DNA from: Planctomycetota bacterium
GTDB taxonomy: Bacteria > Planctomycetota > GCA-002687715 > DRQF01
DNA: 11,589 nt
Direction of reading: 5' to 3'
NCBI GenBank assembly: GCA_036479435.1
Contig: JAZGFI010000166.1
Coordinates: forward strand, 1 to 11,589
A program made the translations under genes and the position numbers. Under the pieces are notes generated by a model that did no database searches, was not told the DNA's origin, and saw only the letters and a program-made list of their open reading frames with translations. Below, piece after piece: positions 2 through 11,589 of this stretch. How positions within the stretch are numbered: the stretch's first letter is position 1; each line of letters starts with the position of its first letter.

Positions 2-505
2 CTTTCAACCCCGCTGTTGGTGACGACGGCCGACCACGCTTTTTTACGCGGCGAGATTGTGGACGACTTTTGCCGCCGGGCCGCCGCCGCCGCCGACGTC
101 GATCTTTGGGTTGGAGTCGTCAGGCACCAATCGGTCCAAGTTCTATTTCCCGGACTTAAAAAGACCGCACACAAGTTGCGAGGCGAAGCCTGGTGCGGCT
201 GCAATCTGTTTTACTTCGCCAGCAAAGACAGCCGGCGAGCCGCCGAACTTTGGCGCCGCGCCGAGAAGGACCGAAAACGCCCCTGGCGAATCGCACGTAC
301 CATCGGCTGGAGGTTTCTTTTGAGTTTTCTCTTGGGTCGCCACAGCCTCGAGCAGACGCTCGACCACATCGGAAAAAAACTCGGCATCCGTATCCGCGCC
401 CTGGAGTTGCCCTTCCCCGAGGCTTCGGTTGACGTCGACTCCGTGGAAGACTGGAAAATCGTTGAACAGTTGATCAAAAACTGCGCGAGCGCATCAACCC
501 CGTGA
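2..505 (+). CDS. MobA-like NTP transferase / nucleotidyltransferase family protein, C-terminal part (5' end outside window)
   Basis: Frame is open from base 2 (LSTPLLVTTADHAFL...), so the track start at 17 is not the real start. Motifs LLVTTADH, GCNLF, WRRAEKDRKRPWR and terminal SVDVD are typical of the GT-A MobA-like family I recall from bacterial sphingolipid clusters. TGA at 503-505 overlaps the next GTG. Confidence 0.75.
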   Translation, partial: LSTPLLVTTADHAFLRGEIVDDFCRRAAAAADVDLWVGVVRHQSVQVLFPGLKKTAHKLRGEAWCGCNLFYFASKDSRRAAELWRRAEKDRKRPWRIARTIGWRFLLSFLLGRHSLEQTLDHIGKKLGIRIRALELPFPEASVDVDSVEDWKIVEQLIKNCASASTP

Positions 506-1887
506 CCTCATCACCATCCCGCCCGCTCTTGCTGCTTCCCGTCGAAAATCAAGTCCGCGAACTCGACGCCAAACTCCTCGTGGCCACGATGGCCGCCCTC
601 GAAGGCTATTCTTCGGTCATCGGGTGGAAGGGCTATATCGACTATCAGATCGCGAGATTCGGTCCGAGCATCTACTTCGCCAAATCGATCTCACCGGCCA
701 ACACCAAGATGCTGGGCATCAAAAGACAGCTCGGCCATTTCGTGATCGCCTGGGACGAAGAAGCAGTCGTCCACTACCCCGCCGAAATTTACTATCGGCG
801 GCGCGTCGGTCAGGAGGCGCTTCAACTCATCGATCGCTACGTATGCTGGGGCGAAGACAACGACGAGCTCATGCGGGGTCATCCCGGATTTGATCCCAAG
901 CTATCGCGAATTCTCGGCAACCCTCGAATCGACCTTCTACGCCCCGAGTTACGAGAGTTTTTCCGCGAACGCGCCGAGACTCTGCGGTCCGAACACGGCG
1001 ACTTTGTTTTGGTCAACACCAATTTCGGCTCCGTCAATGGCTACACCGACAAGCTGAATCTAATGCGCCAAGACGAGAGCGGCACCTGGACCATGGGGCG
1101 CGGCTCCAAAGGCATGCCTTTGGACTATGCGCAGGGGCTCTTTGCGTTTCGATCCCGAGTCCTTGAAGGCTTCCGCGAGATATTGCCACGGCTTGCCGCC
1201 GCCAAGCCCCAGCGCCGTATCATCTTGCGGCCTCATCCCTCAGAAGACCACGAGGACTGGCGGCGCCGACTTGCCGACCATCCCAACATCGAGGTGATCG
1301 CCCAGGGCAACGTGGTGCCCTGGCTCATGGCCTGCTCGGCTCTGCTCCACAACGGCTGCACGACGGCGGTAGAGGGCTTTGTTCTGGGCACCAAGATCGT
1401 GTCCTTTGTCCCAGAGGACGATGACCGCTACGAGTTCGCATTACCCAACGCCTTGGGTCCGAGGTGTCGCAACATTGAGGAGGTTTTGGCCGCGCTTGCG
1501 GGCAGCGCTGAGTCGTCAGAGGTTCTCGCCAACCGCCGCAGCCTGGCCACGCGCTTCATCGGCTCTTTGGACGGCGAGCTCTCGAGCCAACGCATTGTCG
1601 CGATGCTCGATGAATGTCATCCGCGACGGGAACTCAGCGGGCTTGCGACCCGCACCTGGGGCAAGATGCGCGCCGAGTGGCGCCAACTGAATAAGATATT
1701 TAAACAGCGATTCGGCGTCGCGCGCTACGGCGAAGATTTTAGACGCCAGCGCTTCCCCGAACTCAGCGAAGAATTCGTTCAACAAAAAGTCGATCAATTC
1801 GCGACCGCCCTTTCTCTGCCAACTTCACCGCGCGTTCGCCAGCGCAGCCTCGATCTCTTCCAACTGACGCCAAGATCAAACCCTTAA
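502..1887 (+). CDS. Surface carbohydrate biosynthesis protein (TIGR04396-like), putative GT-B glycosyltransferase
   Basis: 461-aa ORF. N-terminal PVENQVRELDAKLL, then WDEEA, GNPRIDLLR, NTNF, LRPHPSE and HNGCTTAVE. GTGA overlap with the upstream gene. Confidence 0.75.
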   Translation: MTSSPSRPLLLLPVENQVRELDAKLLVATMAALEGYSSVIGWKGYIDYQIARFGPSIYFAKSISPANTKMLGIKRQLGHFVIAWDEEAVVHYPAEIYYRRRVGQEALQLIDRYVCWGEDNDELMRGHPGFDPKLSRILGNPRIDLLRPELREFFRERAETLRSEHGDFVLVNTNFGSVNGYTDKLNLMRQDESGTWTMGRGSKGMPLDYAQGLFAFRSRVLEGFREILPRLAAAKPQRRIILRPHPSEDHEDWRRRLADHPNIEVIAQGNVVPWLMACSALLHNGCTTAVEGFVLGTKIVSFVPEDDDRYEFALPNALGPRCRNIEEVLAALAGSAESSEVLANRRSLATRFIGSLDGELSSQRIVAMLDECHPRRELSGLATRTWGKMRAEWRQLNKIFKQRFGVARYGEDFRRQRFPELSEEFVQQKVDQFATALSLPTSPRVRQRSLDLFQLTPRSNP

Positions 1888-1967
1888 CGTTCGCGTCAGA
1901 CCATTTTCACTACCCTTTGACCGCACCGCAAAACTCAGCCGCGAAGGAACCGCGTCTAAGCGGACAC

Positions 1968-2687
1968 CTACAGTTCGAAGGTGTCGCCGAGATAAAGCTC
2001 TCTTACTGCCTCATTCTTGATGATTTCGTCCGGGCTTCCCGATGCCAGGACTCGACCTTCACTCAAGGTGTAGACGGAGTCGCAGAGTTTCAAAGCTTCG
2101 CGCACATTGTGGTCCGTCACCAACACGCCAATGCCGCGCGTGGTGAGATAGGCCACGAGGCGTTGGATCTCTCCCACGGCGACGGGGTCGACGCCGGCAA
2201 AAGGCTCATCGAGCAGCATGTAGCGCGGATTGGCGGCAAGGGCGCGCGCCAATTCACAACGCCTGCGCTCTCCACCAGAAAGGACCGCCGTACTTGAATC
2301 GGCAAGGCGCGTAATACGAAGATCTGCCATGAGTTTTTCGAGCTCGTCGCGACAGGCGCCACGACTCAAATCCCGGCGCATCTGCAGCACGCAGAGAATA
2401 TTGTCGGCGACGGTGAGGCCGCGAAAGATGGATGCCTCCTGAGGCAGATAACCAATGCCGCGGCGCGCGCGGAGATGCATGGGAAGGCTGCTGATGTCTT
2501 CGCCGTGCAAGATGACGCGACCGCCGAGTAGCGCAACCTGGCCCAAGATCGCCCGAAAACAGGTCGTTTTGCCGGCACCATTGGGGCCCAAAAGACCGAC
2601 CACTTTGGCGGGTTCAACCGAAAGAGTGACCCCATCTAAGATCGCGCGACCGCGAAACCGCGCACTGAGATTGTGAGCTTCGAGCAC
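1968..2687 (-). CDS. lptB: LptB-family ABC transporter ATP-binding protein (probably a paralogue of the housekeeping copy)
   Basis: Walker A GPNGAGKT, Q-loop GYLPQEASIFR, LptB-type signature LSGGERRR, Walker B LLDEPFAGVDP, TDHNVRE and LptB C-terminal tail YLGDTFEL. Start moved to GTG 2687, which has GGAG 6 nt upstream and gives 239 aa, the normal LptB length. Confidence 0.9.
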   Translation of the reverse strand: MLEAHNLSARFRGRAILDGVTLSVEPAKVVGLLGPNGAGKTTCFRAILGQVALLGGRVILHGEDISSLPMHLRARRGIGYLPQEASIFRGLTVADNILCVLQMRRDLSRGACRDELEKLMADLRITRLADSSTAVLSGGERRRCELARALAANPRYMLLDEPFAGVDPVAVGEIQRLVAYLTTRGIGVLVTDHNVREALKLCDSVYTLSEGRVLASGSPDEIIKNEAVRELYLGDTFEL

Positions 2688-2798
2688 CAGCGTCTCCGAG
2701 GAATTACTTACCGCGAGCCAGCCCGGGCGACGGTGGCCGCGCGATGATACCCTTTGATAGGTCGGCTTTCGAATACATGCCAGGGGACGCGGCAAGGC

Positions 2799-3902
2799 GT
2801 GACGATTTTCGTGCGATACCTGACGGGAGGAGTGGCGCGTCGCGTGCTGCTCATCGCTGGCGTTTTCTCGGCGGTTTTCTCCGGGTACTCAATGGCGATC
2901 TACCTCTCGCAAGCTGCTTCCGGCTTCATCAAGCCGCAGTTCGTCATTCAGCTCGTCTTGACGAAGACTCTGATCGCGACTGAGATCATCCTGCCGATAT
3001 CCGTCTACGTGGCCGTGCTCCTTGCCGTCGAACAACTAAAGCGCGGGCATGAAACCACCGCCATGCAGGCTTTGGGATTCGGTCCTCGGCAGGCGGCGAA
3101 GGCTCTTGCCGGCCTCTTGTTTGCGTTTGCGCTACTCGTCGCCCTGCTGTCAATGTGGTTGCGACCTCTCGCCTACCGACAGGTCTACCTCACCAACGCC
3201 CGGGCGGAAGCCGCATTCGATCTTCTCGCGTTGGAACCGAACCGCTTTTACGTCGGTCACGAGGGCCAGCGGGTCGTCATGGTGGATGGCAAAAGCGAAG
3301 ACGGTGAGTTGCGGCGCGTCTTTATTTGGAGCAAGAACGATCGCGAAGAGCTCGTGTTACGGGCCGACAGACTTCGCCCCAAGGGAATTGAAGACAGCCA
3401 AGGTCGCGACATCGTCGAATCAAAGAACCTTCGCATTTGGCGCATCGCCGAGCAAGGCTGCGAGATCATCGCGGACTCCGGCGAGTTGACGGCCAGCGTC
3501 GACTTCTCCGGTATCACGCCTTTGGGCTACAAACGTAAAGCCGCTTCTACTCTTCGGCTTGCAAGGTCAGATGACGCCGACGACATCGCAGAGTTTCAGT
3601 GGCGAGTTACCCGCCCGATATCAGCCTTTCTCCTCGGTTTCTTGGCATTGTTTGTGGCGGGATGGGCGCGGACTTCGCAGCGTTCAACCCGTACGATTGC
3701 AATTGGAGTCGCTGTCTGCCTCGCGTACTACTTGATCAGCATCAGCGCTCGGCGCTGGGTTCGCGATGAAATCGTCGACGCCTGGCCGGGAATGTGGTGG
3801 GTCGACGCGCTCTTGGCCTTGATCGTGATCGCCTTGTATACCCGTCGCGGACGCAGTCCGCGACGCAGCAGGGCGACAACGACCGGTGGGGCGAACTCAT
3901 GA
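2799..3902 (+). CDS. lptF: LptF/LptG (YjgP/YjgQ) family permease, LptF-like
   Basis: Start GTG 2799 (MTIFVRYL). Three N-terminal hydrophobic segments with the ETTAMQALG coupling helix, a soluble beta-rich middle, AEFQWR, then three C-terminal hydrophobic segments. Confidence 0.85.
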   Translation: MTIFVRYLTGGVARRVLLIAGVFSAVFSGYSMAIYLSQAASGFIKPQFVIQLVLTKTLIATEIILPISVYVAVLLAVEQLKRGHETTAMQALGFGPRQAAKALAGLLFAFALLVALLSMWLRPLAYRQVYLTNARAEAAFDLLALEPNRFYVGHEGQRVVMVDGKSEDGELRRVFIWSKNDREELVLRADRLRPKGIEDSQGRDIVESKNLRIWRIAEQGCEIIADSGELTASVDFSGITPLGYKRKAASTLRLARSDDADDIAEFQWRVTRPISAFLLGFLALFVAGWARTSQRSTRTIAIGVAVCLAYYLISISARRWVRDEIVDAWPGMWWVDALLALIVIALYTRRGRSPRRSRATTTGGANS

Positions 3903-4984
3903 AGCTCTTCGATCGCTACCTCGCCCGAGCGGCCCTGAAGGGCTTTTTATTGGTGTTGCTGGGTCTCGTCGTGCTGATTAGCCTGGCCGCGCTCGTGGGC
4001 GAGCTCAAAGACGTCGGCAAGGGCCACTACGGGCTGATCGATGCCGTGGCGCATGTCGGCCTGACGCTCCCCCAAAGGGCCTTAGACCTTATGGCCGTCT
4101 CTGCCCTCGTCGGGGGAATTCTAGGACTGGGCTCACTGTCTTCGCAGCGAGAGCTACTCATGCTTAGGGCTTTCGGCCAATCGCCACGCCGAATGCTGCT
4201 CTCCGTCGGTTTCGGCGCCGTACTTCTCATGCTCGGCAGCGCTGCGGTGATGGAGCAGCTGGCGCCCCTCAGCTCGCAAGAGGCATCGCGGCGAAAGCGT
4301 ATCGCCTTAGGAAGCGACCGGGCCGCCCTCACCGAAGAGGATCTTTGGCTCCGCAATGACAACTCTATCGTTCGCATCGGCATGGTCGAAGAATCGGGAG
4401 AGCTGAGCGATGTGCAAATCTTCGAATTCGGTGACCGTCAAAACCTGGCCGCGGTGATCCGGGCCGAGACCGCGACGGTCGAACCTGACGGTACTTGGAC
4501 TTTGAGTCAAGTCCGCCGCGATGACTTGGATGCCAAAACACAAGCGACCTTGGCGAACTTGACCTTCAAAGGAGCGCGCGATCCTGCGAACCTCGACCTT
4601 TTGATTGCCCGCCCCGCCGAACTCTCTATGCGCGCCATAAGCCACGAACTAACCAAAGTCCAAAACTCGAAAGCACCAGCTGAGGCTGCCGCTCGCAAAC
4701 GTCATGAAAGCCTCGAGAGGTGGTTTTGGCGAAAACTGGGCGGGATCCTACTTGGCGGCTGCATGCTGATGTTGGCTCTCCCGTTCGCCGTCGGCTCTTT
4801 GAACCCTGCAAGCAAAGGCAAGCGCTTGATCGTCGGCGTCATTATCGGCGCGATGATTCACGTCGCCGTGCAAGCCTCGCATTACGGTGGCGAGATCGGC
4901 GGCTATGACTCGAGGGTCATGGGACTACTGCCCGCCATCATGGCGTTTGCGGCAGCGATCGCGATGACTTGGCGGTTGCGATAA
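3899..4984 (+). CDS. lptG: LptF/LptG (YjgP/YjgQ) family permease, LptG-like
   Basis: ATG 3899 overlaps the lptF stop (ATGA). MKLFDRYL start, LGLGSLSSQRELLMLRAFGQS coupling helix, LWLRND periplasmic domain, FWRKL before the last three TM segments. Confidence 0.87.
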   Translation: MKLFDRYLARAALKGFLLVLLGLVVLISLAALVGELKDVGKGHYGLIDAVAHVGLTLPQRALDLMAVSALVGGILGLGSLSSQRELLMLRAFGQSPRRMLLSVGFGAVLLMLGSAAVMEQLAPLSSQEASRRKRIALGSDRAALTEEDLWLRNDNSIVRIGMVEESGELSDVQIFEFGDRQNLAAVIRAETATVEPDGTWTLSQVRRDDLDAKTQATLANLTFKGARDPANLDLLIARPAELSMRAISHELTKVQNSKAPAEAAARKRHESLERWFWRKLGGILLGGCMLMLALPFAVGSLNPASKGKRLIVGVIIGAMIHVAVQASHYGGEIGGYDSRVMGLLPAIMAFAAAIAMTWRLR

Positions 4985-4998
4985 ATGAGATCACCAAC

Positions 4999-5066
4999 GG
5001 TGGCAGGCACTGCGCCGTCACTATTCGGTGCCTGGCACGGAAAAGTGACGGCGTGGTGCCTCGCAC
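4999..5066. repeat. Array of three palindromic GGTGCCWGGCAC-like units at 28-nt period, forming a 28-bp-arm inverted repeat (REP-like)
   Basis: Units at 4999 (ggtggcaggcac), 5027 (ggtgcctggcac) and 5055 (ggtgcctcgcac). Arms 5005-5032 and 5034-5061 are reverse complements at 24/28 positions. Lies between convergent genes. Confidence 0.8.
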
Positions 5067-5101
5067 GAGATCAACGATGCCTGGCCGGCACCGTATGAAC
5101 A

Positions 5102-6160
5102 CTATCCGCGGAGGAAACGCAGGGAGCCAGCGATGCCGAGCCGCAAGCCGGGTCCTTCGTGATGAATGATCTGGCCGTCCAAGGTCACCCCACCATCGAG
5201 CTCAATGTCGATCTCACTGGCGATGCAGCTATGGTAACCCTTCATTGGAGTGTTGAAGGTACCGGTCTTCGCACGAATCGCCGCAAGGCCCGCACGAAAA
5301 AGGTGGCGGTGATCAGCAGAAACCGCGGTAAGACGGATCTGACCCTGGCCCTCGCCCTCGCCCCAAAACGGGTAAATGCCGAACACCAAACGCTCAAGCG
5401 TACTCGCCAGCGTTACGCACCAGCGATCTTCAGGCAGTAGCTTGCCGTCGGCGAAGATGCGCTGACGACTGGGCTTGAACGCGCTGCGATTCAAGAAGTG
5501 TTTCGCAACCAGTTTGGCAACGCTAACACCCGTACCAATTCCCGTGCGCATGCCGGGCAATTTGCTGTCGTCTCGGAATGCCCAAGTCTTGAGCGAACCT
5601 TCGTAGACCGCACCGCCACCGACGAAGAAGCCACACTCGGGCCGGCTGCCGTTCTTCGAGACAGCGATCACCGAACGCTCGACGATTTCAAATGGTGGGG
5701 CGCCGCCTTCATCCGTCCACTTCAAGAGACGTTGCAGTTGTTCGATCTGGTCGCCTCGAAGACCGACATCGTAAGCGGTCATGTTGGTGCGACCGCCTTC
5801 AAGTACCGCGAGGAGCGGCATCGATTTCTTGCGGTTGAGTAGGTGAGTCGCCACCATGGAGACGGTTCCGTCTCCTCCACTGACCGCAACCACATCCATG
5901 CCCGACTCTTGAAAGTCATCAAGCGCCGCGCCGACGTCATCTGGGTTTCGAACCACAATGTGAGGAACGGGCAATTCGTCGAGCACGCGCGTGACGCGAT
6001 CAAGGTCACCACACAGGTTTCGGTATCCGAGCCCCATGATGACACCCATTCGAAGAGCCGCGCCACGGGGCTTCCGTTGCGGCTCGAGGCGAGGCATCTC
6101 TGATTGGCCAGCGGCAGCAGTGCTCACCTGGCCCATCGTCAAATCGACCTCATGACTCAT
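5102..6160 (-). CDS. Diacylglycerol/sphingosine kinase catalytic-domain (DAGKc) family protein, ceramide-kinase (CpgB)-like
   Basis: VSGGDGTV motif (GGDGT at 5878-5864), LAVLEGGRTNMTAYDVG, GFFVGGG and C-terminal TLDGQ. Start is uncertain (ATG 6160, or later Met codons such as 6049). Confidence 0.75.
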   Translation of the reverse strand: MSHEVDLTMGQVSTAAAGQSEMPRLEPQRKPRGAALRMGVIMGLGYRNLCGDLDRVTRVLDELPVPHIVVRNPDDVGAALDDFQESGMDVVAVSGGDGTVSMVATHLLNRKKSMPLLAVLEGGRTNMTAYDVGLRGDQIEQLQRLLKWTDEGGAPPFEIVERSVIAVSKNGSRPECGFFVGGGAVYEGSLKTWAFRDDSKLPGMRTGIGTGVSVAKLVAKHFLNRSAFKPSRQRIFADGKLLPEDRWCVTLASTLERLVFGIYPFWGEGEGQGQIRLTAVSADHRHLFRAGLAAIRAKTGTFNTPMKGYHSCIASEIDIELDGGVTLDGQIIHHEGPGLRLGIAGSLRFLRG

Positions 6161-6275
6161 TTGTTCATCCCCACGTCAGCGTGTCGGCGGTATGCTAACG
6201 AGCCTCACTGCTCACACCCCGCCTTTCTCACCACCAAGATCAAACCCCTAACCGACTCCGACACAGCGACTTAAG

Positions 6276-6713
6276 TCACTTACCAGCTTCCCAGGCGTTC
6301 TTCAGGCGCCCGATCAAGCTCTTGGCAAGCTCTTCATCCACGTTTGCTCCCTGCGAAAGATCACAAAGACCGGGCCAACCGGGGTCAGCATAGTCCTTCC
6401 CCTCAAAACTAACGAGTTCGGCGTAACGCAGGATTACGTGAAAGTGAACCTGGCGATCGACCATCATCAGCATGAGGTAGTTGATCTTGTCGTAGGAAAA
6501 AGCGGCGGAAAGAGCGTGCTCGAGATCCACAATGACAGATCCGAATTCGGCAAACGCTTCCGCACTGATATCGGAAAAAGCCTCCGCAGGCTCACGGCAA
6601 ATAAGAACGCAAGACCCCAAGGTGACCTGTTTGCTGCGCAGCAACACCACCCAATGGTCGTATTCACGGACGAGTGTTCGCGGGTAGCCGAAGCTAGCCA
6701 TCGTCTCATTCAC
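6276..6713 (-). CDS. HIT (histidine triad) family nucleotide hydrolase
   Basis: Start GTG 6713 (MNETMASFGY) with GGGGGA upstream, overlapping the upstream stop by 8 nt. Motifs WVVLLR..QVTLGS and KINYLMLMMVDRQVHFHVILRY. Confidence 0.85.
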   Translation of the reverse strand: MNETMASFGYPRTLVREYDHWVVLLRSKQVTLGSCVLICREPAEAFSDISAEAFAEFGSVIVDLEHALSAAFSYDKINYLMLMMVDRQVHFHVILRYAELVSFEGKDYADPGWPGLCDLSQGANVDEELAKSLIGRLKNAWEAGK

Positions 6714-7812
6714 GAATTTGTTCCCCCAACCGTGCGACCCCAAAGGTCTCGGTTAACTTGTACAAGATAGTAAAAAGTGTCGACGCTTGCTCACTTCTTT
6801 TCAGAGAGGCCGAATTTGACCCGAGCCAGCGGGCCATTCCCTTGTCGACGAGATTGCTCGCCACGAGTTCACTGCGCCGCAACGGGACCACAAGGCCTTT
6901 TGCCACCAGCGCTTCCCGCCAAGCCCTCGGAACGACCGCCCGCGACAGCGATTCAAGCGCAGCACGGAACTTCTGCCAAGCCGAGGGTCGACGCGGTGGG
7001 GTAAACAGTCGCAGCTCCCCGCCGACCGCGAGGACATCGGCCATCATCGACACGCTGTCGGCCGTCACGACGAATAGCTGCGCTTCCGCAAGGTAGGCCA
7101 AGTAGGGGTTTTCGTCGCTAGACTCGGAGAAACGATGAAAGTGGAGACAGGTTGACTGAGTCGCATTCCGAAGGGCATCCGCGGCCTCTTTGGAGACGCG
7201 CCGGCCGCAAGTGATGAGCAACTGAGCCCCGGTCTCGGCCGCCAGGGCGCAAGCCTCTTCGCCCAATTTCGCCGCCGTCTCGGGGTCGAATCTGTAGGGC
7301 GGCGCATCGCCTCCGACGAGCAAGGCGATCTTAGGCTGCTGCTCAGCGCCCCAACGTAGCGCGTACTTTTCGGCGACGGCAGATTCGCAAGCCTCTTGGC
7401 GAGTAGCGGTTGAGATAGGAAGGTCGACACTGAAATGGCGGGCGTGAGGCGGCAGGCAGTATTGCGGCGTGGACACGACCAGATCGAAAGCCGCCAAAGG
7501 TGCTCGCGGCCGGCCCAGATGAATCAGCCGCGTCTTACCTCCGCTAAGGCGCTTGATGCCGCGGGCGATCGGGGCGCTGCGCCGACCGACGCCAATGACA
7601 AAGTCCGGCCAGGGCGCGACCAAAGACTCCTCCCCCTCCGCGAGGCTCCAAAAAGATGTGCCCAGCAACCAGTTCGGCAAGCGCCGCAACTCGCGATATT
7701 TGAGCATCTTTTTTTCGAAGGAATAGCCCCATCCTCGGGCAAGGCTTAGGGCCTGAGCGTTGTCGCCAACTTTGTCGCCAAGCAGCACCCAGACTTTGAG
7801 GTCTTCGGACAC
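6706..7812 (-). CDS. ELM1/GtrOC1 family putative glycosyltransferase (mitochondrial fission ELM1-like)
   Basis: 368 aa. VWVLLGDKVGDNAQ, PWPDFVIGVGRRS, FDLVVSTPQY, ALLVGG and NPYLAYLA...VVTADSVSMMAD match the ELM1-family pattern. Confidence 0.8.
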   Translation of the reverse strand: MSEDLKVWVLLGDKVGDNAQALSLARGWGYSFEKKMLKYRELRRLPNWLLGTSFWSLAEGEESLVAPWPDFVIGVGRRSAPIARGIKRLSGGKTRLIHLGRPRAPLAAFDLVVSTPQYCLPPHARHFSVDLPISTATRQEACESAVAEKYALRWGAEQQPKIALLVGGDAPPYRFDPETAAKLGEEACALAAETGAQLLITCGRRVSKEAADALRNATQSTCLHFHRFSESSDENPYLAYLAEAQLFVVTADSVSMMADVLAVGGELRLFTPPRRPSAWQKFRAALESLSRAVVPRAWREALVAKGLVVPLRRSELVASNLVDKGMARWLGSNSASLKRSEQASTLFTILYKLTETFGVARLGEQIRE

Positions 7813-7823
7813 GCCATCAAATC

Positions 7824-8978
7824 TCAGTATGTCAACCGCTTTTCAGTCTTTAGCGGTAGCTCGGCCAACAGTGCGGCGATGCGTTCTCCGGCACCGCCAG
7901 TTCCGTAAAGAGGGTCCGACTCCAAGCGACCCACTTGCCGCGCCGCTTCGACTCCCTTGATGATCTCACTGCGGTTGTAGCCGACGTCGATAACATTGGG
8001 TCCCCGGTCTCTTCCCGCTTGCCGACCGCCAATGTTGATCGCTGGAAGCCCCAAGAACGCACATTCGCGAATCCCCACACTCGAATTGCCAACGATGCAA
8101 TCGGCGCGGTTCAGCATTCGAATGAAGTGCTCAGGTGCGAGGCTCTTGAAGAAATGAATGTGATCGGGTGATTGGTTCTCGCGAAAAGCTCGAATACCGT
8201 TTGAGGTGCCATCGGATCCGGCATCGACGTTGGGCCAAAACCACAGGGTGGGCCGCTTGAGATCTTTGATCGCAAACAGAGTCTCTTCGATGTTGTGCCG
8301 GGAGGCTTTGTATTCGGTGGTAACCGGGTGCTGCATGACAACGACGTAGCCGTCGTCGAGCGCAATGCGCGGGCCAACGCCCGAATAGTGTTCGAAGACG
8401 TCGAAGTCCTTTGCGTCATCTTCGAGCGCCTTCAGCGCAACATCAATCGAAGGGCATCCCGTAACATGAACTTGCGACGGCTCTTCGCCCATCTTGATGA
8501 CGCGCTCGGCGGCGGGCCCTGAGGCGACAAAGTGGATGTCCGCGAGTTTCGTGACCGCATGGCGAACTTTCTCGTCAATCGAACCGGTAACTTCCCCGCC
8601 TTGGATATGAGCCAAAGGAATGTGGAGATAACTCGCCGCAATAGCCGTCGCCATCGTTTCAAATCGATCCGCAATCGTGACCACCACGTCGGGCTTTAGA
8701 TTGTCGAAAACGGTCGCGAGTTCCACGACGCCGAGTCCCGTCGATTTTGCGGACGTTACGAGATTCTCACCTTCGAGAATCATGTACACCCGGCGATCGA
8801 TGGAAAACCCCTCTTCGTCGATCGTGCGATCCGTGGCACCGTAGCGATCCAAGAGCGCGGAGGCGGCGATGACCAACTGAAGTTCTAGATCGGGATGATC
8901 TTTGACCGCCTTCAGAATCGAACGCGCACGCGAATAACTCGGCCGGGCGGTAACGACGACGCAGATCTTTCGTTTCAT
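7824..8978 (-). CDS. neuC: UDP-N-acetylglucosamine 2-epimerase (hydrolysing), NeuC family
   Basis: RKICVVVTARPSY, DRFE, AHIQGGEVTGSIDEKVRHAVTKLADIHF, QHPVTTE, PNVDAG, VGNSSVGIRE, IGGRQAGR. Directly downstream of neuB with an ATGA overlap. Confidence 0.92.
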   Translation of the reverse strand: MKRKICVVVTARPSYSRARSILKAVKDHPDLELQLVIAASALLDRYGATDRTIDEEGFSIDRRVYMILEGENLVTSAKSTGLGVVELATVFDNLKPDVVVTIADRFETMATAIAASYLHIPLAHIQGGEVTGSIDEKVRHAVTKLADIHFVASGPAAERVIKMGEEPSQVHVTGCPSIDVALKALEDDAKDFDVFEHYSGVGPRIALDDGYVVVMQHPVTTEYKASRHNIEETLFAIKDLKRPTLWFWPNVDAGSDGTSNGIRAFRENQSPDHIHFFKSLAPEHFIRMLNRADCIVGNSSVGIRECAFLGLPAINIGGRQAGRDRGPNVIDVGYNRSEIIKGVEAARQVGRLESDPLYGTGGAGERIAALLAELPLKTEKRLTY

Positions 8979-10054
8979 GACTGAGCGGCCTCAAGATCGT
9001 CGTGGGACAAAAGAGCGTTTCGCTTGACGTCCCGTTGTAACCGGCGCCCGATGAGGGTGGGAAGGTCATTGGCGGGGATTCCGGCTCCGGGCTTTTTCGC
9101 CGTCAGGTGTCGATCCTCCAAAACCGTGCCCGCGGCAAGATCGTCCTTCGCGACGACACTCTTCATGAACACCGAGCGCAAGCCCGCGATGTCATCTGGC
9201 ACTCGAGATTTGTCGACGGGATAAGCGCGAAGCGTCTCGGCGAATCGAATTCCCTCCACGAGCTGTGCGAGTTCCTCTGGAATCACCGAAGACGGCACGT
9301 CGGGTCCGAACATCTCACGACTAAACGTCAAATGGAGTTCCAAAAACTCGATGCCCACCGTCGCCGCCGCGATTCCCGCATAGATCGTCCCCGAGTGATC
9401 CGACAAACCGGCCGCGCAGCCCAGACGCTCGCGGATCTCGGCGATGACGTTCAGTCCGAGTTTCTCCGGTGGGCATGGGTAGGCGGAAGTGCACTGAAAA
9501 ACGCCAACGGGTGCTTGGTGACCGCGCACCAGCTCAACGGCGGCCTCGATCTCGGGCCAAGCGCTCATCCCCGTCGAAATCAAGACCGGTTTACCGGTTT
9601 GCGCCATCGCTGCAATCAAGGCGTGGTTATTAGTCTCACCAGAAGCGACTTTCCAGCCGGCGACTCCGACGTCGGCGAGTAAGTCGATCGCTTCGGCGGA
9701 GAATGGCGACGACAAAAAGAGCAACCCGGCTTCACGCGCGTGCGCCTCCAGCTCGCTCCACTGTGATTTAGAGAACTCCATGCGCTTCCAGTAGTCAAAA
9801 CGCGTCTCATCTTGCGACGAGAACTTCGTCCGCCAGGGTTCTGAGGGCGTGCTTTCGGCTTCGGCGATGTGAGTTTGAAACTTGATGGCATCGGCGCCGC
9901 AGCGCGCGGCACAGTCGATGTAAGCATGTGCCATACCAAGACTGCCATCGTGAGCCTGGGCGACTTCCACAATGATGGTGGCGGGAGCCCCAGGGCGCGG
10001 GTTGTGAAGCCAGGAGTCAGGCATGGGCATGGGCATGGCCTTATTCTTGCTCAT
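8975..10054 (-). CDS. neuB: N-acetylneuraminate (nonulosonate) synthase, NeuB family, with C-terminal SAF/antifreeze-like domain
   Basis: EVAQAHDGS, ADAIKFQTH, SSPFS, KVASGE, ISTGMS, QCTSAYP, GLSDHSG, ELHLT and C-terminal KSVVA...KKPGAGIP. ATGA overlaps at both ends. Confidence 0.93.
   Translation of the reverse strand: MSKNKAMPMPMPDSWLHNPRPGAPATIIVEVAQAHDGSLGMAHAYIDCAARCGADAIKFQTHIAEAESTPSEPWRTKFSSQDETRFDYWKRMEFSKSQWSELEAHAREAGLLFLSSPFSAEAIDLLADVGVAGWKVASGETNNHALIAAMAQTGKPVLISTGMSAWPEIEAAVELVRGHQAPVGVFQCTSAYPCPPEKLGLNVIAEIRERLGCAAGLSDHSGTIYAGIAAATVGIEFLELHLTFSREMFGPDVPSSVIPEELAQLVEGIRFAETLRAYPVDKSRVPDDIAGLRSVFMKSVVAKDDLAAGTVLEDRHLTAKKPGAGIPANDLPTLIGRRLQRDVKRNALLSHDDLEAAQS
10020..10037. repeat. 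Hexamer tandem repeat (GGCATG)x3 encoding MPMPMP at the NeuB N-terminus
   Basis: Read directly: ggcatg ggcatg ggcatg. Confidence 0.7.
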
Positions 10055-10809
10055 GATGGTTCGATTTCGTTTTCGTTTTCGTTTTTTGGTTGGGATCGTT
10101 GAAACATGAACTCGGCTAACTCCAGTTCAATGGGCTCGTCGATGTTGACGACAAAGCCATCGACGACGACTCCGGCGCAGTCATCTTCGACAATGTGCCC
10201 ATCATCAACAAGCGTCGACCTGGTCAAGGCGTAGCAGATTCCATTGCGGATGAAGTAGCTCTTGGCGTCCTGGCGCCGCGAAACCGCGCCGCCACCACCG
10301 GCAACGCTGTCCCAAAAGAACTGGATGCGGCCGCCATGATCGCGAAGGAGGCATTTTTCTGGGACGTAATGACCCGGCATCGCTGAAATCGTGGTCGCGG
10401 CTCGATGACCACCCTCGACCACCGCCTCGACGCAACGGCGAACATCTTCCGACCGCCGCAATGGCGTCGTGGGTTGCAGTAAGACCGAGACGTCAAATCG
10501 CTGATCGAAGTGCGCTTCGCTCTTCAGCCAAGCGTCCTGCCACATGCCCACAGAACTGGCCAGATCCGTCGCGTACTGATCCGGCCGCAGAAAGGGAACA
10601 CTCAGTCCACAACGTCGCCCTTCTTCGACCATCTCTTCGTCGTCGGTGGAAAGGACTGCGGCATCGATCCAGGGCAGTTCGGCGATGGTGTGAGCCGCCC
10701 AAGCGATAAGCGAGCGTCCCCCGACCCGGGCGAGGTTTTTGCGAGGTATGCCTTTGCTACCGCCGCGCGCGGGAACAACCGCAAGAACTGAAAGCCCGTT
10801 CCAAGCCAA
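10051..10809 (-). CDS. neuA: CMP-N-acylneuraminate synthetase (acylneuraminate cytidylyltransferase), NeuA family
   Basis: PARGGSKGIPRKN, STDD, PFLRP...ATD, LLQPTTPLR, RRQD, RNG..Y and NID. TTG start at 10809 preceded by GAGGAG. Confidence 0.92.
   Translation of the reverse strand: MAWNGLSVLAVVPARGGSKGIPRKNLARVGGRSLIAWAAHTIAELPWIDAAVLSTDDEEMVEEGRRCGLSVPFLRPDQYATDLASSVGMWQDAWLKSEAHFDQRFDVSVLLQPTTPLRRSEDVRRCVEAVVEGGHRAATTISAMPGHYVPEKCLLRDHGGRIQFFWDSVAGGGGAVSRRQDAKSYFIRNGICYALTRSTLVDDGHIVEDDCAGVVVDGFVVNIDEPIELELAEFMFQRSQPKNENENEIEPS
10065..10082. repeat. Hexamer tandem repeat (TTTCGT)x3 encoding NENENE in the NeuA C-terminal tail
   Basis: Read directly: tttcgt tttcgt tttcgt. Confidence 0.7.
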
Positions 10810-10917: not shown

Positions 10918-11589
10918 TCATGCCACGGGGAAGTAGACGCTGAAGGTCGTGCCTTCCTTGGGCTCAGATGCCACTATAATTCGCCCCCCGGACTGCATGA
11001 CAATGCCGTGTACAGAGGCCAAGCCGAGTCCGGTGCCCCGATGCTCGGCCTTGGTCGTAAAGAAGGGCTCAAAGATATTCGGCAACAACTCCGAGGGGAT
11101 ACCCTCCCCGGAGTCCGTGACTTTCAACGCAACGAAATCACCGTCGAGCCCCTCCAACTCGGCGATGTCAGCCACCGCCATCTCGGTCAGCTCGATGGTG
11201 ATGGTGCCCATGCCAACAATCGCATCTCGTCCGTTCAACACCAGATTCATGACCACCTGTTCGAACTGGCTGCGATCGACCCTAATCAAACGGGTCTTGG
11301 GCCCCCCCGAGATGAGCAGTTCAACATCAACTGGCAACAAACGCTTGAGCATTGGCTTCAACGACCGGATGACCTCGCCCGGATTCAATGCCGTCGCGTG
11401 CAGAACTTGTTGCCGGCCAAAGGCCAAGAGCTGGTTGGTCAACCTTGCGGCTCGCTCCGCGCAAGCGGTGATCTCCGAGGTCTGTTCGATGTAATCGCGA
11501 TGGTTGTCGATCCTCTTTTCAGATTTGATTTGGCTCCGAAGCAGCTCGGCATTGCCGATGATGGCGGTGAGGATGTTGTTGAAATCGTG
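10918..11589 (-). CDS. Sensor histidine kinase, C-terminal HisKA + HATPase_c region (5' part outside window)
   Basis: Frame is open to the window edge and begins HDFNNILTAIIGNAELL (H-box). Then QLLAFGRQQ, N-box QVVMNLVLNGRDA, G1 DSGEG, F-box IFEPFFTTK and G2 GTGLGL. Stop after FSVYFPVA. Confidence 0.93.
   Translation of the reverse strand, partial: HDFNNILTAIIGNAELLRSQIKSEKRIDNHRDYIEQTSEITACAERAARLTNQLLAFGRQQVLHATALNPGEVIRSLKPMLKRLLPVDVELLISGGPKTRLIRVDRSQFEQVVMNLVLNGRDAIVGMGTITIELTEMAVADIAELEGLDGDFVALKVTDSGEGIPSELLPNIFEPFFTTKAEHRGTGLGLASVHGIVMQSGGRIIVASEPKEGTTFSVYFPVA

Follow-up and report, generated by a model that had tools for sequence, protein, structure and literature searches.

Gangliosides are eukaryotic sialic-acid glycosphingolipids. 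In Emiliania huxleyi, a glycosphingolipid modified with sialic acid has been described (PMC5371807, excerpt), and for bacteria the point of comparison is the Caulobacter crescentus cluster for ceramide phosphoglycerate (CPG) and CPG2, CC_1152-CC_1168 (PMC11324152, excerpt; PMC10331486; PMC12275187, excerpt; bioRxiv 10.64898/2026.04.12.717747, excerpt). Here, we analyze a stretch of 11,589 nucleotides from a Planctomycetota bacterium (contig JAZGFI010000166.1 of assembly GCA_036479435.1; hereafter, the window), in which counterparts of Caulobacter cluster genes are packed together with neuA, neuB and neuC, predicted to make a CMP-activated nonulosonate, and with two putative transferases. As judged from gene content and homology, the nonulosonate module probably decorates the phosphosphingolipid as a cap. 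A first-pass annotation, made from the letters of the window, had proposed this link between lipid and sugar, together with export to the outer membrane and a role as a lipopolysaccharide (LPS) substitute or ganglioside mimic. No paper on a bacterial sialylated-sphingolipid pathway was found in the open-access literature at the level of search listings, and the terms sialic, neuraminic and Kdo (3-deoxy-D-manno-octulosonate) do not occur in the excerpted main text of a Black Sea sphingolipid paper (PMC11334938).

A phosphosphingolipid cluster continues from a second contig into the window

The window is an entire contig (C166) of a 5.47-Mb genome (G000; 299 contigs, 92% complete), and its first 127 bases overlap exactly with the final 127 bases of contig C278 (8,971 bp) in reverse complement. 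Genome-wide, this 127-mer is found in C278 and C166 alone, and the reading frame of a MobA-like protein runs unbroken from C278 into the window. A 15-kb contig in a public run reaches 10.1 kb to the left of window base 1, which supports the continuation without giving its letters. Contamination was considered and rejected, since the tetranucleotide fit of C166 and C278 falls at the 99.6th and 94th percentile, respectively, of 9-kb pieces of the genome, and the lipid kinase of the window is present in 7 of 8 genomes of the family.

Domain and profile searches recovered each gene on the first-pass list at its position (Table 1), and C278 and the window together hold counterparts of all nine non-core genes CC_1152, CC_1153 and CC_1155 to CC_1161. 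C278 contributes a CpgD-like nucleotidyltransferase, a metallophosphoesterase, a 311-aa protein without a Pfam match that is CpgC-like by position and homology, and a CpgA-like CDP-alcohol phosphotransferase, a gene type that the first-pass annotation had named as one to look for left of base 1 and in the whole genome. It also encodes an MsbA-like exporter (476 bits, below the 602 cut-off) and an S-adenosylmethionine (SAM) methyltransferase. The window portion of the MobA-like protein has no Pfam match by itself, the N-terminal half on C278 matching PF12804 (MobA-like), and the protein is the best match in the genome of MobA-like proteins from complete spt clusters (31-43% identity).

Counterparts were assigned from domains and from best matches to loci in the published CC_1164-CC_1152 order, with other alphaproteobacterial clusters standing in for the Caulobacter proteins. 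Alphaproteobacterial loci including L069 and L082 keep the Caulobacter gene order, and the marker proteins of loci of this type find their best matches in G000 among proteins of the window, C278 and contig C84, the exceptions being the ABC exporter and AasR. The window kinase has a single match in each of five cluster-bearing genomes out of five, and is the best G000 match in the reverse direction. The domains and best matches thus bear out the earlier identification of the markers as counterparts of the Caulobacter cluster. Because the kinase alignment was too diverse, the HIT protein was used for a scan of loci. Among the best 80 of 509 confirmed genome loci, 72 have another cluster marker, 48 have spt or bCerS and 38 have both within 10 kb; within the same distance, 13 have a TIGR04396 gene and 9 a nonulosonate gene.

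The caveat that spt, bCerS and cerR lie outside the window was correct and extends to the recovered left flank, and all three are present in the genome as adjacent cerR-like, spt and bCerS-like genes on C84. The best solved relative of Spt is the S. multivorum SPT (388.6 bits, versus 280 for the Sphingomonas SPT and 263 for AONS/KBL), with the protein falling below the NCBIfam NF047600 cut-off (498 versus 640), and the bCerS and cerR of C84 are the best G000 matches of the cluster proteins. A bCerS-like gene occurs in 21 of the 23 genomes of the order and the kinase in 11; in a phylum sample of 301 genomes, with seven candidates scored per genome, the kinase was found in 9, all within this order. 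We infer that the ceramide pathway is native and that the decoration and export cluster was acquired later. Neither C278 nor the window contains aasR, a specialized acyl carrier protein (ACP) gene, lptC2 or a CC_1166 flippase gene, lptC2 and CC_1166 not having been sought genome-wide. In the genome, at 92% completeness, there was no ACP match, and cluster AasR queries reached at best 22-41% identity and at most 147 bits. No structure of the Caulobacter CpgD was found.

On the export side, the genome has two LptF/LptG pairs, the other being on C145. In a 19-row tree, the window LptF grouped with sphingolipid-cluster LptF (support 99/97) and the window LptG with cluster LptG (91/86), apart from the C145 pair; the cluster proteins that they join come from Nitrospirota, deltaproteobacteria and gammaproteobacteria. 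A second lptB on C53 encodes a protein 46% identical to the locus LptB, so the latter may be dedicated to this locus. In Caulobacter, one LptB is shared (preprint 10.64898/2026.04.12.717747, excerpt). Taken together, these data make it very likely that the phosphosphingolipid cluster is genuine.

Nonulosonate genes accompany sphingolipid genes in several phyla

The sugar genes are tightly joined to the lipid genes. The neuA, neuB and neuC genes overlap by 4 nt at each junction, the ELM1 gene begins 11 nt past neuC, and the HIT and then the kinase gene continue this run on the same strand; on the opposite strand, the first 4 nt of the TIGR04396 gene are shared with the end of the MobA-like gene.

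The co-occurrence of spt with a nonulosonate pathway, which the first-pass annotation had raised as a matter for a neighborhood survey, does recur in other phyla. By extension of selected loci rather than from a random sample, a nonulosonate synthase, of one of three NeuB clades, was found in the same contig region as sphingolipid-cluster genes in 16 genomes of four phylum-level groups. Window-type neuABC lies with cluster genes in five genomes (G000, G013, G019, the Nitrospiraceae genome G041 and the alphaproteobacterium G042, where neuC and neuB extend as far as the contig end), a cupin-fused NeuB of 515 aa in seven (G043, G049, G051, G058, G059, G060 and G063), mostly accompanied by an oxidoreductase, HAD and NeuA, and a short NeuB in four (G044, G052, G071 and G222). 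G064 and G075, in which these genes are divided between split contigs, were left out of the count. In G044, a CMP-synthetase comes after the short NeuB; the domain fused to it has a KDN-9-phosphatase as its best match, below threshold, and the label "KDN-type" is therefore tentative. In a FastTree phylogeny of 90 rows, the three NeuB sets formed separate branches with unlinked NeuBs between them. The arrangement of a Gfo/Idh/MocA oxidoreductase, the 515-aa NeuB with its C-terminal cupin, HAD and NeuA was also seen as a recurring module by the spt clusters of L088 (16524-19876), L158, L245, L248, L251 and L258.

In the Nitrospiraceae locus L108, aasR-cerR-acp-spt-neuA-neuB-neuC-TIGR04396 follow one another on one strand, and NeuA, NeuB and NeuC are 55, 56 and 69% identical to those of the window. 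In the 301 planctomycete genomes, TIGR04396 was as frequent as the kinase (9 genomes each), with both in 3. Among 161 Nitrospirota genomes drawn evenly, Spt exceeded the cut-off in three, and in each of these a TIGR04396 gene lies on the same strand, 2.6-3.2 kb downstream; of the 158 others, 3 have a TIGR04396 member. The three genomes with Spt are probably kin, and one was the center of the draw.

This last point is one of several that weigh against a sugar-capped lipid. Among the 80 closest metagenome NeuC loci, a sphingolipid marker was found in 3 (2 of the 36 loci of at least 9 kb), TIGR04396 in 5 and ELM1 in 1, and many close NeuC relatives sit in polysaccharide loci. The sphingolipid link is limited to a subclade recognizable by its NeuA; of its 10 rows, 6 have a sphingolipid marker if an spt fragment (L167) and a CDP-alcohol transferase (L209) are included. 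Moreover, window-type neuABC is part of the cluster in only 2 of 10 kinase-bearing relatives, the others carrying ELM1 copies, sulfotransferases, methyltransferases or a Kdo-hydroxylase-like gene instead; on gene content, these varying genes read as swappable headgroup modules, and they also show neu to be dispensable. The co-occurrence of NeuB with the kinase in 10 of the 11 kinase-bearing genomes of the order was rejected as support, because the NeuBs of the window's own family belong to other clades (31-38% identical), the four regions inspected (G001, G002, G004 and G021) being without sphingolipid genes. Finally, the genome makes lipid A and Kdo, and KdoT, a characterized relative of the ELM1 protein, acts on lipid A.

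These observations invite the explanation that the locus is an envelope island, in which the cluster makes CPG/CPG2-type lipids and neuABC, TIGR04396 and ELM1 merely travel along, decorating LPS core, O-antigen or another surface glycan. The presence of lpxC, waaA and kdsB, the addition of Kdo to Kdo2-lipid A by KdoT (PMC12856342, excerpt) and the frequency of the NeuBC clade and of distant TIGR04396 members in polysaccharide loci would all fit. Nevertheless, we consider an envelope island unlikely: the sugar genes are packed among lipid genes on both strands, three NeuB clades neighbor spt or cpg genes across four phylum-level groups, C278 and the window contain no Wzx, Wzy or Kps gene, and the LPS genes are on other contigs. 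Since the genome keeps lpxC, waaA and kdsB, as well as a separate lptFG pair and lptB, the earlier suggestion that the lipid substitutes for LPS is not supported.

Relatives of the cluster vary in ways of their own. The clusters L036 and L038-L046 (G022, G004, G001, G005, G002 and G006) contain one to three ELM1 genes and sulfotransferases, with a Kdo-hydroxylase-like gene and an ATP sulfurylase nearby in G001 and G005 and a Kdo/WaaP kinase in G022, and are candidates for Kdo- and sulfate-decorated sphingolipids. In L061 (15032-17407) and other Nitrospirales loci, a fusion of about 790 aa, joining an unnamed domain to ELM1, directly follows spt; the unnamed domain stands alone in planctomycete clusters (L038:14241-15182). 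In G013, a 466-aa protein without a Pfam match lies between the kinase and neuC (L035:93-1490).

The sugar is predicted to be N-acetylneuraminic acid or a derivative

The best solved relative of NeuC is human GNE (236 bits, versus 185 for a bacillosamine-type enzyme), and that of NeuB, which scores 296 against the TIGR03569 equivalog cut-off of 400, is SiaC from the meningococcus, which gives 160 bits where PseI gives 131. The locus contains no dehydratase, aminotransferase or acetyltransferase of the legionaminic acid (Leg) or pseudaminic acid (Pse) pathways, and six queries from the Leg/Sps-type loci of relatives gave matches of 26-36% elsewhere in the genome and nothing for three of the six. 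NeuA groups, with support 99, in a clade of ten members that includes the NeuAs from other sphingolipid-linked loci. Our best guess for the product is N-acetylneuraminic acid (Neu5Ac) or a derivative.

Two candidate ulosonate transferases

The two TRANSFERASES of the locus are the TIGR04396 protein and the ELM1 protein, both of which fold as GT-B. The model of the TIGR04396 protein (pLDDT 95) has as its top matches TarL (Z 20.7, root-mean-square deviation 3.8, 310 aligned), UDP-GlcNAc epimerases (20.2), Bcs3 (18.3) and TagF (17.4). Function cannot be read from this fold; the polysialyltransferase 5wc6 reaches only Z 12.7. By sequence, the TIGR04396 profile found no match among solved structures, ESM Atlas returned unnamed TIGR04396-like clusters with one PF04464 lead (19% of members), and the family is named in no searched paper. 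RPHPxE is invariant in all 109 aligned homologues, as is DEE, the residue after it being A (83 homologues), G (16), S (9) or a gap (1). HP and D/E-D/E-G are motifs of bacterial sialyltransferases (PMC2169525, excerpt); the strict D/E-D/E-G motif is only partly matched by the DEEA of the window, a further point against a sialic-acid cap.

By sequence, the TIGR04396 protein weakly matches the NF046086 BFO_1060 family (69.6 bits, E 2.5e-19; cut-off 200), whose Tannerella members are needed for the addition of Pse or Leg, as judged from mutants (PMC5420450, excerpt). As this family is the only characterized sequence relative, the module might glycosylate protein as in Tannerella, independently of the lipid. 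We regard such protein glycosylation as very improbable, given that the match is far under the cut-off and that the locus showed neither an oligosaccharyltransferase nor a target gene; it would also leave unexplained why the module directly follows spt in other phyla.

TIGR04396 exceeded the cut-off in none of 14 control genomes, Caulobacter included, and the window protein groups with those of G013, L108 and L167 (support 99). Distant members were found in nine genomes without the kinase or an over-cut-off Spt in the two phylum samples, six of them with a NeuB-family gene nearby, and the family therefore looks like one of general nonulosonate transferases that is not specific for sphingolipids. 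The distant members occupy ordinary polysaccharide loci, which likewise counts against a lipid acceptor. In a separate observation, L252-L254, from a Nitrosomonas, a Burkholderiales and a gammaproteobacterial host that each have cluster genes elsewhere, carry a short NeuB and TIGR04396 with no sphingolipid gene beside them, with a CMP-synthetase in L252 and L254.

KdoT is an ELM1-family CMP-Kdo transferase in which the second arginine of SRRT is essential (PMC12856342, excerpt). The window ELM1 protein has GRRV where homologues have SRRT, and R205, invariant in 11 of 11, appears to be kept; the fold search gave generic GT-B matches only. The G022 cluster contains two ELM1 genes, and searches of this genome (91% complete) turned up neither NeuB nor TIGR04396; in G043 and G044 TIGR04396 and a synthase are present with no ELM1 found, a pattern that suggests ELM1 for Kdo and TIGR04396 for nonulosonate. 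In the cluster contig of G019, however, neuABC are accompanied by ELM1 alone, which speaks against this division. The interpretation given in the first-pass annotation was supported in part, and it had missed that both GT-B proteins have characterized relatives that transfer ulosonic acids.

Group 2 capsule is carried on a lipid anchor. By analogy, the product might be a polymer anchored on ceramide phosphoglycerate, with the TIGR04396 protein as polymerase, a ulosonate chain on a Kdo linker and export by LptFG. The polymerases TarL, Bcs3 and TagF among the top fold matches, and the two ELM1 genes of G022 without NeuB or TIGR04396, which fit a Kdo linker, would agree with this. However, epimerases reach an equal score (Z 20.2) and the polysialyltransferase just 12.7, chain-length and capsule export genes are absent from the locus, and BFO_1060, the weak sequence relative, attaches a single terminal residue (PMC5420450, excerpt); a polymer therefore appears improbable.

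A model for a nonulosonate-capped sphingolipid

We propose that a horizontally spread headgroup-and-export cluster, represented by C278 and the window, took in a nonulosonate capping module. Ceramide would be supplied by the native spt-bCerS-cerR genes of C84 and converted by the CpgB-like kinase to ceramide-1-phosphate, to which the CpgC, CpgD and CpgA counterparts would add phosphoglycerate, as shown in Caulobacter. NeuC, NeuB and NeuA would make CMP-Neu5Ac or a close relative, and the TIGR04396 protein would move the nonulosonate onto the lipid headgroup, with the ELM1 protein adding a ulosonate, more likely Kdo, perhaps as a linker. The SAM methyltransferase of C278 may tailor the sugar, as may a 315-aa protein of the same contig (L050:6661-7605) that has no Pfam match and an invariant HxD...H...R pattern, and which is probably a 2-oxoglutarate dioxygenase. 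The MsbA-like exporter would then flip the lipid, and the LptB-F2-G2 proteins of the locus would extract it to the outer membrane, alongside ordinary LPS. The 315-aa family was also seen beside nonulosonate genes or TIGR04396 in L232, L246-L249, L257, L258, L306 and L318, and is a candidate sugar hydroxylase.

In its full form, the model holds that bacteria of at least four phylum-level groups make a ceramide-phosphoglycerate lipid of the outer membrane that bears a nonulosonate cap (sialic acid, KDN or another), is built by TIGR04396, exported by its own LptB-F-G and varied by interchangeable sugar modules. Such a lipid would parallel gangliosides by convergence and would be analogous to lipooligosaccharide (LOS), with ceramide as the anchor. 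On the homology and gene-order evidence, we lean slightly toward this fuller picture. None of the contrary findings named in the first-pass annotation, such as a genome without spt and bCerS or markers grouping with non-sphingolipid clades, was made where it could be tested.

If the model is true, the range of bacterial sphingolipid headgroups is widened, TIGR04396 gains a testable function, the ELM1/KdoT family extends from lipid A to ceramide, a cargo is named for a second Lpt system having its own ATPase, and a sialylated ceramide in an environmental lipidome would not have to come from a eukaryote. Known substrates can serve to assay the enzymes, which are either soluble or membrane-associated.

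Other features of the window and genome

Table 1. Genes of the locus in the window, with the profile evidence for each
Feature	Position	Strand	Evidence and remarks
MobA-like NTP transferase, C-terminal part, counterpart of CC_1153	2..505	+	N-terminal part on C278
TIGR04396 GT-B protein, candidate CMP-nonulosonate transferase	502..1887	+	TIGR04396, 339 bits (cut-off 125)
LptB paralogue	1968..2795	-	TIGR04406, 331 bits (cut-off 240); probable start near 2687
LptF2-type permease	2754..3902	+	PF03739; probable start near 2799
LptG2-type permease	3899..4984 (also listed as 3794-4984)	+	PF03739
CpgB-like lipid kinase, predicted ceramide kinase	5102..6160	-	PF00781 DAGK_cat; GGDG invariant
HIT protein, counterpart of CC_1157	6276..6743	-	PF01230
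ELM1/KdoT-family GT-B protein, candidate CMP-ulosonate (Kdo or Neu) transferase	6706..7812	-	PF06258, 153 bits
NeuC, hydrolysing UDP-GlcNAc 2-epimerase	7824..8978	-	TIGR03568, 375 bits (cut-off 236)
NeuB nonulosonate synthase, sole NeuB of the genome	8975..10054	-	PF03102 and SAF; below TIGR03569 cut-off
NeuA, CMP-nonulosonate synthetase	10051..10809	-	PF02348

The right end of the window overlaps contig C264, and positions 10918-11589 (minus strand) encode the C-terminal HisKA/HATPase portion of a sensor kinase that is not related to the cluster. Short elements at 5026-5066 and 1889-1920, between convergent genes, are also present on further long contigs in the same sequencing runs and are small dispersed repeats, possibly terminator-like or repetitive extragenic palindromic (REP)-like. 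Promoter and terminator scans gave no excess over shuffled sequence, and there was no RNA dataset among the listed runs holding the locus. Two of the seven runs that hold it, both from one study that may be the source of this DNA, are labelled invertebrate metagenome; any host association would bear on mimicry. Elsewhere in the genome, C162 (13483-16665, minus strand) encodes a 1,061-aa methyltransferase-aminotransferase fusion that resembles methionine S-methyltransferase.

Comparison with known systems

The locus shares with the Caulobacter CPG cluster the counterparts of cpgA, cpgB, cpgC, cpgD, the MobA-like, HIT and phosphoesterase genes, lptF2 and lptG2, with spt, bCerS and cerR in the genome. 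It differs in that the ceramide core genes are unlinked, Spt is Sphingobacterium-like and there is no close aasR; in that the locus has its own lptB, whereas Caulobacter shares the LPS LptB; and in having an MsbA-like exporter in place of a CC_1166-type flippase. The neuABC, TIGR04396, ELM1, methyltransferase and probable dioxygenase genes are additional to the Caulobacter set.

The ELM1 protein resembles Acinetobacter baumannii KdoT (A1S_2903; PMC12856342, excerpt; PMC10936431) in its PF06258 domain, GT-B fold and motif arginine, a comparison made through other aligned homologues, and differs in having GRRV rather than SRRT and in following neuC in a sphingolipid cluster rather than lying in an LOS core locus. 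The TIGR04396 protein is like Tannerella forsythia Tanf_01245, TFUB4_00887 and BFO_1060 (PMC5420450, excerpt) in its weak profile match, GT-B/TagB-like fold, HP motif and nearby nonulosonate synthases; it is unlike them in scoring below the family cut-off, and the Tannerella enzymes attach Pse or Leg to the O-glycans of proteins. As in the Neu5Ac pathway (N. meningitidis SiaC, 1XUU; human GNE, 4ZHT), NeuC, NeuB and NeuA are all present, here in one run, but the window NeuB is below the TIGR03569 cut-off and the locus has no neuD or polysialyltransferase. With the sialic-acid glycosphingolipids of eukaryotes, the predicted lipid would share a nonulosonate on a ceramide anchor; the earlier term "ganglioside-like" thus holds as an analogy only, since the expected link is phosphoglycerate, not a neutral glycan, and the transferases are unrelated GT-B proteins serving a lipid that would be exported to the outer membrane.

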